NCBI RefSeq assembly: GCF_011745625.1
Contig: NW_027191491.1
Span: 124,001 to 177,764, forward strand
Origin: Cladosporium halotolerans
Taxonomy: Eukaryota
Direction of reading: 5' to 3'
Length of the DNA: 53,764 nucleotides
The notes beneath the pieces are model-generated. The model was not told the origin of the DNA. It did no database searches and saw only the letters and a list, made by a program, of their open reading frames with translations. Numbering within the stretch: the first letter of the stretch is position 1; each line of letters opens with the position of its first letter. Shown here in pieces: positions 34,724 to 39,086 of this stretch. The position numbers and the translations under genes were made by a program.

Positions 34724-35596
34724 TGCTGAGAGCTGGAGCCAGTTCGCTCGGTTTGTTGCGGGATGAGATTCGAACCGTCGAAGGTCGAGAGAAGACACAA
34801 ATCGGTGTCAGATCGTATTTTGGCCAGATGCAATCGCGATTCGCGCCCAAGGTATCGAAAGTAGTCCTCCGATCTCCCTTCCCCAGAAATCCGCAGCGGC
34901 GCGTGTAAGGTAAACGCTCAACACCCGATCGCGCCAGGAGCGGCTGAAAGAGGGTGGAAGAAGGAAGAAGAGAACGTGACGAGAAAGCCTCGCGCTGCAC
35001 TATGCAGTCCGGTGGTGAGATCGTGAGCTCGACGGCTTCGTCGTCGCCGGCAGCGACAGCTGGAACGTCGTAAACTAGCGGGACGCCTCGAATGGCCAGC
35101 TAAGCTGCCTCCTAGCGCGGGCCGGGCAGGGCAAGGGGTCTATTTCCAGCGTTTCTGTCGCGCTTATGCAAGGCTGCGCGACCCGCGATCAAAACGTGTC
35201 CTTGACTGACTTTCGAGGCGGACACGTGAAGAGCACAAAGTCACGTGGTGGTGAATTCAGTTATGGTGATTGTGCATTTTCAGCAAGATAATTTTGTACG
35301 TTGAAGTAATTTGTGCTGTTTCCTCTGTACCAGGCCCAGGGCATACTACTAAAAAATCGCCCGCGCCCCGCAAGTATCTATACATCAGGCTGCGAGCATC
35401 AAAGGCCAACCAACCCGTCTCTATATCTCAAAAGGGGGGAAGGGAAAGATCAATTCGATAACCCGCGAGAGCTTCAGGCCCAGATAACCATGCATTTTCC
35501 TTCGAGGAAACAAACAAAAACGCTCACAGATGCACAGACACACACGCGACACGCACTTGACAAACCTTTCTCTTTCGTTCTTTCTCTCTTTCTCTC

Positions 35597-37817
35597 TTAC
35601 TCGTCGTCTTGCCCCACTTGTCGGTACTTCCCACTACCTCCACCGTTCGCGTCGCCCTTCTTGACGAGGTTGCTGATCCAGCCGCCGACGCCCTCTTCGC
35701 GCTCCGAGTCTTTGCTGAGGACCGGCTTGCCTCCCTGGATCTCGACGGCGGGCGGGTCGATGTCGAGGTCGGGCACGTTGGGGTCGACGTTGGACTCGCC
35801 CTCGCCCAGACGGAACGAGGGAACGGGCGAGCGGTTGCCGGAGAAGAGGGATTCTGCTTCCGCGAGAGTCTCTGGGGTGGGAGCCATTGTCGTGGCGTCG
35901 CCGAAGAGGGAGTTCATGTCTTCGAGGCGGACGTTGGCGGTTTCGGGGTAGATGAACCAGACTGGATCATGTTAGCGAGAGCTCAACTCAGATCTAGAAC
36001 ATGGACACATTGTAAGACTTACCAACAACAAAAGACACAGCGCAGAAGAACGCATGAACCAAATACAGCCGCCACTTGATAGCATCCTGCAAAATCGGCG
36101 TCATCTCGCCCACGAGCCAGTTGAACGACCAGTTGGCAGCAGTCGACAGACTGGCACCCTTCGCGCGAATGCTGAGCGGCAGGATCTCCGGTGGGTAGAG
36201 CCAGGGAATCGGACCCCACGAGAAACCGAACGAGGCGTTGTAGATCATGACGAAGATGACGACCAGGGTCGGCGTGAGCTTGATGTCGATGTAGATGAAG
36301 TACGAGATCGCGGACAGCGAGATGATCATGGCAGCCGCGCCAGAGAGCAGGATGAATCGACGACCGAGACGATCTACGAGGTACCAGGGCGGGACGGTTG
36401 ACATGAGGTAGGTGACGCCGTTGATGCCGGTCATCAGGATAGCGTCGCGGCCGACCCAACCGGCTTGCTCGAAGACCAGAGGCGCATAGTAGGAAATAAC
36501 GTTGATGCCGTTCAGCTGTGCGAGAGCCTGGGCGGACATAGCGATGAAGACACGCTTGTAGTAGCGCTTGAACATGTCGTAGTAGCTGCGCTCGCCTTCC
36601 TGGCGCTGCAGGAGGACGTTCATCTTGATCTCGCGGTACTCATCTCTCGCCTTGGGGTTGTGAATGTCACCCTTGCCGTACAAGTTGGCAATCACTACAA
36701 TGCCTTCCTCGTCGTGGTCATTGTCCAACAGCCAGCGAGGCGACTCCACGACCAGGAAAGTGCCGACGGCCAGAAGGGATCCCATAATGACCTGCATGAA
36801 AAGCGGCGCACGCCATGCCCAGTCATTGTTGATATAGCTGCAGCCGTAATCGACCCAGACACTGACCATGTAGCCGAAGATGTTGCCAGAAAACTCGATG
36901 CACGCCAGCTTGCCTCTGTTGTGCGGAGGCGAGATTTCCGACTGGTAGACGGGCACAATCGTAGTGAGAGCGCCCACGCCGAGACCAGCTATAATTCTCC
37001 CGAGCATCATCATGGGCATGCCCGTGGCGAATGTCTGGCAAGCTCCTCCAACAACGAAAATGAGGGCACCATATAGAATGGTCTTCTTCCTGCCAATGAC
37101 ATCGCCTATCCGTCCGGTGACGAGCGAGGCGATCAGAGCACCGATCTCAAGAATAGCTACCATGGTTCCGATCTCGGCCCTCGAAGGCTGGTTGAAGTAG
37201 TCCTTGAAGTACGGGCCCGTGATGAGGCCCGACATGACGCCCTGATCATATCCGAAGAGGAAGACGCCTAACGAGACGAAAATCGACAGGAAGTAGATCA
37301 GCTTCTTCCCGTGCAACCCGTGCATACGGGAGGGTCCATCTGCGGCGGGCATGAGGGCGGCGGCTAGGAGCTTCTCGCCCCAGTTGAGTCTTCTGGGCGG
37401 AGGCTCCGGGATGGGGATGTCCTTGGGGCTCTTAGGAACGCTGGCGAAGCGTCCGGTGTGCTGGCCTTCCTTCTCGTTGTTCGCGCTCCGAGAAGCGTAT
37501 CGCACCCTCTTCTGGTGGCCGCGGCCTCGGTGGTGCGAGCTCTGAGGGTCGTCGACGCTCACGCGTACACGTCCGGCGAGCGGGTCCTCGTCGGCAAGCT
37601 GGTCGACGAGATCGCCCGTGTCACTCCAGAGCGAGAAGTCGGAGCGGTCGTCGTCGTCGTCTGTCTCGGAGTAGGAGCCGGAGCGGCGCAGGCGCGCGCG
37701 GTCGCCGTACTTTTCGTCGAAGCTCTCGCGGTGGGAGCGGCGGGAGGAGGAACCGAGGGTGTGCAGGGGGATGTTGGCGGGCTTTCGTGTACTGTTGCTG
37801 CCGATAGTGAACGGAAT
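35597..37817 (-). CDS. MFS sugar-porter family monosaccharide transporter, 2 exons (..-36023, 35961-35597); first AUG at 37352, proposed AUU start at 37817
   Basis: Motifs LFGYDQGVMSG, DVIGRKK, GRIIAGLGVG, YQSEISPPHNRGKL, ESPRWL, QLNGINVISYYAP, SWGPIPWLYPPEI and IYPET. The start position is uncertain (see findings). Confidence 0.9.
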
Positions 37818-39086
37818 CTTGGCGGTGGTCGGGGCTGTAGCGGACCCTCTCCCGCAATGGAGGTGGTGGTGTGGGCGGCGGTGCTAAGAAAAGCAGAGCG
37901 CCGTTGGGATGGAATGCGGGTAGGGACCCGGCGGTGAGGATGGGCAAGGCACGAAGAGGTAGGTGTGTGTAGGACGGCGTCGAGGTGCGTCAGAGCTCTA
38001 CCCTGCTAGACGACGACAGCCGGCGGGCCTAGGTGACTGATAGCCGGGGGTGGAGTGGGCGGCGCGTGTGATCCACTCGGCGGCGGTGTCGCTCGGGCTG
38101 GCGGTGCGTGTGGGCTGGGGGGTGCTGGCTGGCTGGCGGGAGGTCACAGCGGGCGGGATGCTGCTCATGGGCTGCAGGCGATGCAAGGCACGTGGGAGTC
38201 AGAACGAGGGGGGCATTGAGCTGCCGGGCGGGCCAGACGGTGCGTGGGAGGCGACGGGATCGCGTGGTGAGGGCAGCTGGTGTTCTGTCAAGGTCGAAGT
38301 CTAAGCTGTCCCTAGTCCCCCCAGCGTGGTGAGCGAGCGAGGCGACGTTGATGGCGCCGCTCCCGCCCGGTGGGTCCGACCACGCATTTGCCGGGGGCCT
38401 TGGAGCGATAGCGAACCCTGAGTGCGGTAAAGGCTCGACGACCGGACCCTCTGGCCTTCCTGCCCGAGCGATCTTCGAAAAGCCTCTGCGGCACCTTATC
38501 AACACTTTTCCCGTACACAACAAAATCACCCTGGCCGATCGTCGGCGGCTGCGTTCTGTTGCCTTGCAGTATCGCCAGCCCGCCTATGCACAATTACCGC
38601 GCACTGCAGCGGCCAGGCCAAGCCAATTGCAGAACCAAAGCCAACGTGACTCTGGGAGCACTTTTAGCCGCTGCTGAGCCGACTCCCTACTGCCTAGTAT
38701 TGCTAGCTATGTTCATGTGAGCACCGCAATACGACCCCGGCCGGGGCGTGAGTGGGGGACGCGTGTTGGCATTATTCATGTTACTGCTGGCCATCATCGG
38801 ACACGCTCGCGCTGTCGCGTGGATGGCACACGTGAGGGCACTGGATAAATATTCCATTTACGGTTTGGCAGAGAAGCGTTCAGAATGGCTTTTTTGTGAG
38901 ATTCGTTCCCGTGTGTAATCACTATTTCGCTGGTTTGCCCTCGGGCTCGCCCAGCCATATTCCTAATCCACAACGCCATGCAGGAGCAAGTACGATCCAT
39001 TATCGCCGTCTTGCGTGAGATATACCATAAACAACAAGCAGAAATTCAATCATTCACATCGTCCAATTATTCCCATCGTGACCGCT

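Follow-up and report, generated by a model that had tools for sequence, protein, structure and literature searches.

Conserved N-terminal extensions that start at near-cognate codons have been described for several fungal genes. For the Neurospora crassa transcription factor gene cpc-1, the account of Ivanov et al. (2017; PMC5487733) describes an N-terminal extension with a near-cognate AUU start (NCC7), which is one of several near-cognate starts (CUG, AUU, ACG), is kept in 64 of 100 species, and is embedded in a GCN4-like control with a pair of upstream open reading frames (uORFs). For Ustilago maydis, an AGG-AUU start in the 6-phosphogluconate dehydrogenase (PGD) mRNA is described as giving rise to a peroxisomal isoform (Kremp et al., 2020; PMC7214817), and comparable starts are described for the mitochondrial isoforms of Cryptococcus ArgRS (cccaccAUU) and LeuRS (ACG-AUU) (Wallace et al., 2020; PMC7049704). 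The gene considered here lies at positions 35597–37817 on the minus strand of a 53,764-nt stretch of the Cladosporium halotolerans genome (RefSeq assembly GCF_011745625.1, contig NW_027191491.1, positions 124,001 to 177,764 of the forward strand; hereafter the window) and, judged by its sequence, encodes a sugar-porter-family transporter of the major facilitator superfamily (MFS). It probably yields a 719-codon product initiated at the AUU at 37817–37815 and, through leaky scanning to the AUG at 37352, a 564-codon isoform.

The sugar-porter frame contains no stop codon from 37883 down to the donor of a 61-nt intron by open reading frame (ORF) analysis, and an in-frame TAG at 37886–37884 lies directly 5' of the open frame. 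The earliest in-frame ATG is located at 37352–37350, and from 38168 to 37352 the minus strand is devoid of ATG in all three frames. Neither strand of the window has a longer ATG-free gap than these 816 nt (the runners-up measure 704 nt on the minus strand and 513 nt on the plus strand), and the base composition of the 813 nt in the tract would lead one to expect approximately 5.2 ATGs, against none observed. Positions 37826–37812 read ACCGCCAAG ATT CCG, and the sequence from 37817 to 37353 translates to 155 residues, so that the coordinates, with the intron at 35962–36022 removed, give 719 codons from the AUU to the stop and 564 from the AUG. The ATG at 38168 shares the frame of the ORF, and two in-frame TAGs (38000–37998 and 37886–37884) intervene. 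An earlier reading made from the letters of the window only (the sequence-only reading) had reported the frame as open to a TAG near 37885, the strand as AUG-free for about 810 nt, the ATT at 37817 as standing in a strong start context, and a trial splice of the 38168 AUG exon (GTAGAG donor, ttag acceptor) as giving the wrong frame. All four observations hold, the trial splice removing 118 nt and shifting the frame.

The identity of the transporter is given by its main domain. The translation of exon 1 (P0001), with the last part of the domain lying outside it in exon 2, matches PF00083 Sugar_tr with an E value of 6.1e-102 and 342.2 bits (cut-off 22.3) over residues 200–619, corresponding to profile positions 2–431 of 452. 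The nearest solved relatives are the plant STP10 (E 2.2e-48) and STP6, the bacterial GlcP and XylE, and the human GLUT1/3, which align only to about residues 186–618 of P0001 and leave the 155-residue tail uncovered. Long helices are predicted over residues 171–597 of the structural model, with a core predicted local distance difference test (pLDDT) score of mostly 70–95 and an arrangement that fits the twelve-helix MFS fold. The profile match, the STP10 match, and the model helices thus point to a full 12-helix Sugar_tr domain in common with the sugar porter family. Names attached to the relatives ('high affinity glucose transporter' or 'MFS monosaccharide transporter-like', for instance) are automatic annotations.

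A search with the extension only recovered 138 fungal proteins at E ≤ 0.01 among 4041 candidates, all of which carry Sugar_tr domains. The named matches include Dothideomycetes (Cryoendolithus, Zasmidium, Vermiconidia, Hortaea, Lecanosticta, Acrodontium, many Pleosporales, Aureobasidium, and Lasiodiplodia), several lichen-forming fungi, and the leotiomycete Amylocarpus. When a profile of the extension was run against 1.84 billion representatives, it matched 158 proteins at E ≤ 0.001, mainly short fragments, and brought in no further family, names, or taxa. In the annotated N-termini compared, similarity begins at an Ile (..AK-IPF.., ..AT-IPF.., ..FK-IPS.., ..FT-IPS..) located 4–11 residues ahead of the motif R(K/R)PANIPLH, and the annotated models share nothing 5' of this Ile. 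The conserved motifs of the extension, RKPANIPLH, DFSLWSDTGDLVDQLA, KRVRY, and EDIxIPxPPPR among them, show 43–84% amino-acid identity across the set, and the motif DTGDLV is invariant.

Metagenome contigs were scanned with an alignment of 16 extensions, which yielded 190 pattern matches and 89 confirmed relatives, with 80 loci retained. Of these 80, 77 include the start region; merged at 97% identity, they and the window form 58 distinct sequences, of which 54 hold the entire extension and four are cut by a contig end. The extension frame is open in all of the 54 complete sequences, and over their 1431 pairs the differences fall on the three codon positions as 70476:61517:115695. Among the window and five close relatives, substitutions 3' of the ATT are distributed as 173:141:617, and the indels there measure 3, 3, and 9 nt, all multiples of three. 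The 300 nt 5' of the ATT in the same six sequences show differences of 365:307:304, which have no periodicity, and indels of 1, 2, 4, 5, 7, 8 nt and more, many of them frame-shifting. By these comparisons the extension is judged to evolve as coding sequence and to be translated, and the coding signature begins at the ATT.

The start codon itself is ATT in 54 of the 58 distinct sequences, ATA in two, ATC-GTG in two, and ATG in none, while the remaining Ile codons of the same extensions comprise 204 ATC, 87 ATA, and 59 ATT (17% ATT), and the invariant Ile of ANIPLH is encoded by ATC in 49, ATT in six, and ATA in three. Since the ATT of the start is fixed while the other Ile codons vary, its third base is held by something beyond the amino acid. 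The surrounding context is conserved to a similar degree: all 54 distinct sequences but one (L052), hence 53, carry A at −3, with C at −4 in nearly all (68 of 70 loci counted, the two exceptions being mis-picked codons), and CC at +4/+5 in nearly all orthologous loci. The ATA starts occur in L059/60 and L065 in the context GCCACA-ATA-GCT, and ATC-GTG-GCT replaces the ATT in L052 and L077, where the GTG has A at −3 and G at +4. The start has drifted among near-cognates in two lineages and never to ATG. The residues following the ATT (I-P-F/S) are conserved, and the codon preceding it is variable (AAG, AAA, ACC, AAT, AAC, ACA, ATT, or ATC). If one reads upstream from the start to the first in-frame stop, none of the 54 sequences shows an in-frame ATG, although two of them reach the contig edge first. 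This stop is four codons away in L041/42, six in L043/44/46, L045, and L068/69/73/74, and 11–12 in L016 and L039/50. As a separate observation, the Tothia fuscella model P0113 begins M-P-P-N-L-S-RRPANIPLH, with a Met at the position of the Ile in the others, and this Met might reflect an AUG that occurs naturally at the homologous codon.

Whether the mRNA could bring in an AUG from further upstream bears directly on the use of the AUU. The RNA evidence consists of assembled contigs of close relatives that are 95–99% alike, the spliced ones coming from three studies. The run X7 is recorded as metatranscriptomic RNA-Seq; for X1, X4, and X5 an RNA origin is no more than a guess, X1 and X4 carrying the spliced joint and X5, which does not, perhaps being DNA. 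A single 2691-nt contig of X7 joins 35318–35961 to 36023–38069, and a single 2688-nt contig of X1 joins 35436–35961 to 36023–38183. X4 provides a contig with the joint 35961/36023 and a separate colinear contig over 37734–38266, and X5 a colinear contig over 37542–38251. RNA from which the intron has been removed is therefore colinear with the genome across the first AUG, the extension, the ATT, and the in-frame TAG, and colinearity extends at least 250–450 nt further upstream, with no splice joint reported in the contigs between 37553 and 38266. Over 36023–38069, X7 differs from the window at 26 positions, all listed, of which none falls on the ATT (37815–37817) or on the TAG, and neither of the differences nearest the ATT (37732 and 37904) creates an ATG. 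Given a translated extension, an mRNA that supplies no AUG for it, and a fixed near-cognate codon at the limit of conservation, initiation at the AUU itself is the only economical reading, and it is the one that we infer.

A second line of evidence concerns the AUG at the other end of the extension. Between the start and the first in-frame ATG, only three ATGs in any frame were counted in total over the 54 sequences, whereas permutation of the codon order gives 133.1 expected, and the window has none over the 465 nt between the AUU and the AUG at 37352. The first in-frame ATG lies 127–166 codons 3' of the start and stands 10 codons ahead of the motif HGLHGK in 50 of the 54 sequences; among the other four, the spacing is nine codons twice and 22 codons once, and one contig ends before the motif. 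Met occurs twice in 13,690 residues between ANIPLH and the tenth residue before HGLHGK in 101 database proteins. The depletion of AUG, the positionally fixed AUG, and the avoidance of Met in the tail together suggest leaky scanning to a second start. The sequence-only reading had proposed near-cognate initiation of a 719-residue form with a protein-like extension of 155 residues; it had named amino-acid conservation, a conserved non-AUG codon, and AUG depletion as support, and an AUG exon spliced in frame or an ATG at 37817–37815 as refutation. The comparisons agree with it on these points, and the X7 contig, which is spliced, keeps both the ATT and the TAG.

Near-cognate start codons are inefficient and leaky, and an AUU that serves as a start is read as Met. 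Scanning ribosomes would read the AUU as a near-cognate start because its surroundings, with C at −4 and A at −3, are optimal for fungi, and many of them would scan past it because of the low efficiency of such a codon. After 465 AUG-free nucleotides, these ribosomes would reach the in-frame AUG at 37352, where initiation would produce the 564-codon isoform, which lacks the tail but has the transporter domain in full. This AUG is thus a probable start, and two isoforms of 719 and 564 residues are expected from one mRNA.

Several points weigh against this interpretation. The AUG at 37352 stands in a weak context in the window (CTC ATG C, with C at −3 and at +4), and an internal promoter is a candidate for another source of the short form. 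Another in-frame near-cognate is present between the upstream stop and the ATT in 47 of 56 sequences, and species with such further near-cognates may have extra upstream starts. The 58 sequences are related by phylogeny, and their counts do not represent independent events. The RNA evidence comes from contigs of relatives, with three of the four runs guessed to be RNA; contigs report presence only and are blind to transcript starts, abundance, and minor spliced forms, and for X1, which differs from the window at 52 places here, 41 of the differences fall outside those listed.

The alternative that survives best, although it is unlikely, accepts the AUU as the start and takes the long protein as the sole product, with the AUG at 37352 encoding a conserved internal Met and the AUG-free tract merely preventing the loss of ribosomes to out-of-frame ORFs. 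It would account for the weak context of this AUG in the window, for the fact that no short protein is in evidence, and for an extension that is as conserved as a functional domain. However, ribosomes must get to the next AUG if the near-cognate start is leaky, and the position of that AUG ahead of HGLHGK is fixed. Its context is also good in most orthologues, 37 of 54 having A at −3 and 44 of 54 having G at +4, and the avoidance of Met in the tail is what selection for exactly two products predicts.

It is very unlikely that the long form starts at another nearby non-AUG codon, such as the AAG at 37820, the ATC at 37805, or upstream near-cognates elsewhere. AAG-ATT forms a near-cognate tandem that resembles the AGG-AUU described for Ustilago PGD (PMC7214817), and the 47 sequences with other upstream near-cognates fit such a start as well. 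Yet the codon before the ATT varies and the ATT is fixed, the I-P-F/S after it is conserved, and the AAG at 37820–37818 is the sole near-cognate between the TAG and the ATT in the window. The leader element located 5' of the ATT is found in all three phases.

An upstream AUG exon spliced in frame, with ttcttag (37884) or acag (37835) as example acceptors, would permit a normal AUG start and is less probable still. A good pyrimidine-rich TAG acceptor does lie just 5' of the open frame, many orthologues have a conserved CAG 13–16 nt 5' of the ATT, and the public models of the orthologue all invent exons of this kind. The upstream parts of these models are dissimilar, however, and indels among close relatives shift the frame upstream of the ATT. 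L041/42 carry an in-frame TAA between the conserved CAG and the ATT, and the contigs of X7 and X1, which have the intron joint, remain colinear to 38069 and 38183, with those of X4 and X5 adding colinear cover of the same region without a joint. The remaining alternative, in which the extension is an untranslated leader conserved by constraint on the RNA and only the AUG at 37352 is used, is hardly credible, since an ordinary long 5' UTR under selection against upstream AUGs would also be AUG-free but would not show an excess of third-position substitutions, indels confined to multiples of three, a frame open in every complete sequence, and conserved amino-acid motifs. Initiation at the AUU followed by leaky scanning to the AUG at 37352 is accordingly preferred, and the features of the gene under this interpretation are collected in Table 1.

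Table 1. Features of the sugar porter gene and its 5' leader, in positions of the window.
Feature	Position	Strand	Evidence
AUU (ATT) start codon of the long isoform	37815..37817	-	onset of amino-acid conservation; ATT in 54/58 distinct sequences
Start context ACCGCCAAG (A at -3 and C at -4; CC follows at +4/+5)	37818..37826	-	
Remainder of the 155-codon N-terminal extension, Ser/Asp/Arg-rich, Met-free, predicted disordered	37353..37814	-	
First AUG, probable start of the short isoform	37350..37352	-	first ATG in any frame past the ATT
Coding exon 1, extension and most of the Sugar_tr domain	36023..37817	-	PF00083 match; colinear RNA contigs
Intron, 61 nt, GT..AG	35962..36022	-	joint 35961/36023 in contigs of X7, X1, and X4
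Coding exon 2 including the stop codon, C-terminal cytosolic tail	35597..35961	-	tail conserved among full-length orthologues
In-frame TAG, 22 codons 5' of the AUU	37884..37886	-	retained in the X7 RNA contig
Conserved 5'-leader element, window version GCGGGAGAGGGTCCGCTACAGCCCC	37831..37855	-	orthologue comparison
uORF of 56 codons, weak-context upstream AUG (CCC ATG A), in the frame of the ORF, closed by TAG	37998..38168	-	upstream AUG within the X1, X4, and X5 contigs
Mini-uORF MPPSF*	38199..38216	-	contig cover from X4 and X5 only

Upstream of the ATT, most orthologues contain the element GGAGnnGGGCTGCTCCnnnnCAGCC, which ends 12–16 nt 5' of the ATT; in the orthologous loci it spans about −45 to −12 from the ATT (e.g., L043:1474–1495). 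Its core, GCTGCTC(C/T), is present in 33 of the 58 sequences, 28–34 nt from the ATT and in phases of 20:5:8. Because the element takes every one of the three phases, and some loci have in-frame stops within it or behind it, it is not part of the ORF, and a coding 'RAAPxQP' motif 5' of the Ile, which was also considered, was rejected on these grounds. In the leader consensus, GGGCTG and CAGCCC are able to base-pair and would enclose a loop of 8 nt. A stem of at least 6 bp with its 3' end at −24 to −6 can be formed in 36 of the 58 sequences, compared with seven of 58 in a control window at −110 to −61, and the mean best stem in shuffled sequences is 3.8 bp. Variant stems are apparently compensated (GGGACTG/CAGTCCC, TGGGTTC/GAACCCG, AGGGCTA/TAGCCCT, and GAGGCAG/CTGCCTC), and one variant reaches 10 bp (CTTCCTGCCT/AGGCAGGAGG). 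The stem in the lineage of the window has only 5 bp (GCGGG/TCCGC).

Tests for a shared structure gave a less uniform picture. RNAalifold predicted no consensus structure on a MAFFT alignment of positions −55 to +6 of the 58 sequences. A two-helix (pseudoknot-like) drawing has 84.3% of its cells paired versus 83.1% in shuffles, of which 18 of 500 were as high, and its covariation score is 0.112 versus 0.102 (54 of 500 as high), so that covariation is not demonstrated on this alignment, in which divergent variants are misaligned. Slid controls were 43–55% paired, but the structure was drawn from these same sequences. Single folds of 16 leader sequences gave z-scores from +0.87 to −3.75, with −0.14 for the window. 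The leader element itself is regarded as real from its conservation, and the hairpin structure and its role as putative.

It can be proposed, although only tentatively, that the element GGAGnnGGGCUGCUCCnnnnCAGCC of most orthologues, of which compensated variants are seen in L012, L023, L032/39, L061/67, and L071, is a cis-acting RNA structure that enables or regulates near-cognate initiation. A hairpin that refolds at the mRNA exit channel of the 40S subunit or on the eIF3 side, with the AUU in the P site, might cause the scanning complex to dwell there. The effect of a downstream hairpin on initiation is known, and the leader element would be its upstream counterpart. In the Pleosporales-like group, the hairpin might act jointly with an AUG-stop mini-uORF located 119–166 nt upstream. 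A literature search, by titles only, found no pertinent title on an upstream hairpin acting on near-cognate starts.

This AUG-stop mini-uORF contains the nearest upstream AUG, 119–166 nt 5' of the ATT, in 16 of the 58 sequences (L021, L024, L026, L029, L030, L031, L034, L035, L040, L043, L047, L048, L049, L058, L068, and L076) and is absent from the window. The window has instead the two uORFs of Table 1, whose AUGs at 38216 (MPPSF*) and 38168 (56 codons) are both in weak context and whose peptides are not conserved among close relatives, in which the frames differ. A 4-nt insertion (GCTG) behind 38123 in X5 shifts the frame of the 56-codon uORF, and X4 has a GGT insertion behind 37861, within a CAC/His-like repeat of the leader. 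X4 also shows a loose end of 15 T residues before 38886, read as the poly(A) end of the upstream neighbor on the minus strand, which places the promoter of the transporter gene between about 38886 and 38266/38183. An Illumina adapter directly behind 38266 in X4 hints at the 5' end of the transporter mRNA, and the uncovered parts upstream of 38266 are uninformative on the start of the transcript.

As for the extension itself, Pfam returned no family above the cut-off when it was searched alone (the sub-threshold matches were CCT at E 0.022 and RED_N at E 0.075), and no recognized targeting motif was found in its 155 residues by the Pfam scan. The AlphaFold model, built with 64 sequences, has pLDDT values below 50 for residues 1–126, one better-predicted piece of the extension, a short helix at residues 146–155 adjoining the Met, and no confident contact between the tail and the core. 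The extension therefore has the appearance of a cytosolic tail that is disordered and contains short conserved motifs. The sequence-only reading had put forward sorting or phospho-regulation as possible roles of this Ser/Asp-rich tail, and the extension most likely bears sorting or regulatory signals. In yeast, nutrient transporters recruit arrestin-type adaptors through acidic patches of their N-terminal tails, and DTGDLV resembles the acidic dileucine-like type of signal, [DE]xxxL[LIV], by which the AP-3 route leads to the vacuole. On account of this yeast precedent and the likeness of DTGDLV to a sorting signal, it is hypothesized that sorting or turnover may differ between the long and the short form.

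The missing AUG appears to have left its mark on public annotation. Models of the orthologue contain unrelated invented AUG exons, start inside the extension, or are fused to the upstream neighbor. The Hortaea werneckii models P0033–P0048 are fused to an upstream PF03641 (lysine-decarboxylase-like) gene, and P0017, P0032, and P0081 are labeled 'Ribulose bisphosphate carboxylase large chain'. These fusions and names look like annotation errors, plausibly provoked by the absence of an AUG, and the locus offers a concrete test case for the annotation of non-AUG starts. Alternative initiation would provide a polytopic transporter with an optional cytosolic tail of 155 residues, and the fixed upstream element would offer a handle on what, beyond Kozak context, makes a near-cognate codon usable. 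On comparative evidence, this AUU is among the better-supported natural AUU starts known to us, kept across Dothideomycetes, lichen-forming lineages, and a leotiomycete while synonymous Ile codons elsewhere drift freely. A separate literature search found no paper linking a sugar porter to a near-cognate start, and we know of no precedent in this protein class for a near-cognate-initiated extension combined with leaky scanning.

The cited fungal examples are soluble enzymes or a transcription factor, unlike the transporter, and each shares a different part of the arrangement with it. As described for cpc-1 (PMC5487733), a conserved in-frame extension lies 5' of the first AUG, the AUU is conserved in a near-optimal context with A at −3, and the conservation reaches across classes of Pezizomycotina. 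In contrast to the several near-cognate starts of that gene (PMC5487733), the transporter gene has a single start codon, which is ATT in 54 of 58 sequences, its product is a membrane protein, and its extension runs to a fixed AUG through a nearly AUG-free tract. In Ustilago PGD, a near-cognate likewise precedes the AUU (here AAG-AUU), and a single mRNA is described as yielding two isoforms, a long one that carries additional targeting information and a short one from an AUG (PMC7214817); two isoforms are expected from the transporter mRNA as well. The PGD extension is described as short and as containing a PTS2 signal (PMC7214817), whereas that of the transporter has 155 residues and no recognized targeting motif. 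Dual localization of the transporter isoforms is put forward here as a hypothesis. The Cryptococcus ArgRS and LeuRS mRNAs share with the transporter an AUU in a strong context with A at −3, and they show the leaky scanning to the AUG of a shorter form that is expected here (PMC7049704). These enzymes are soluble, have mitochondrial presequences, and are supported by ribosome profiling (PMC7049704), whereas the transporter is a polytopic membrane protein whose isoforms are predicted from sequence comparison. Taken together, the comparisons support the view that the transporter gene has a conserved near-cognate-initiated N-terminal extension with leaky scanning, which would be of a known kind and an unusually clean case of it.

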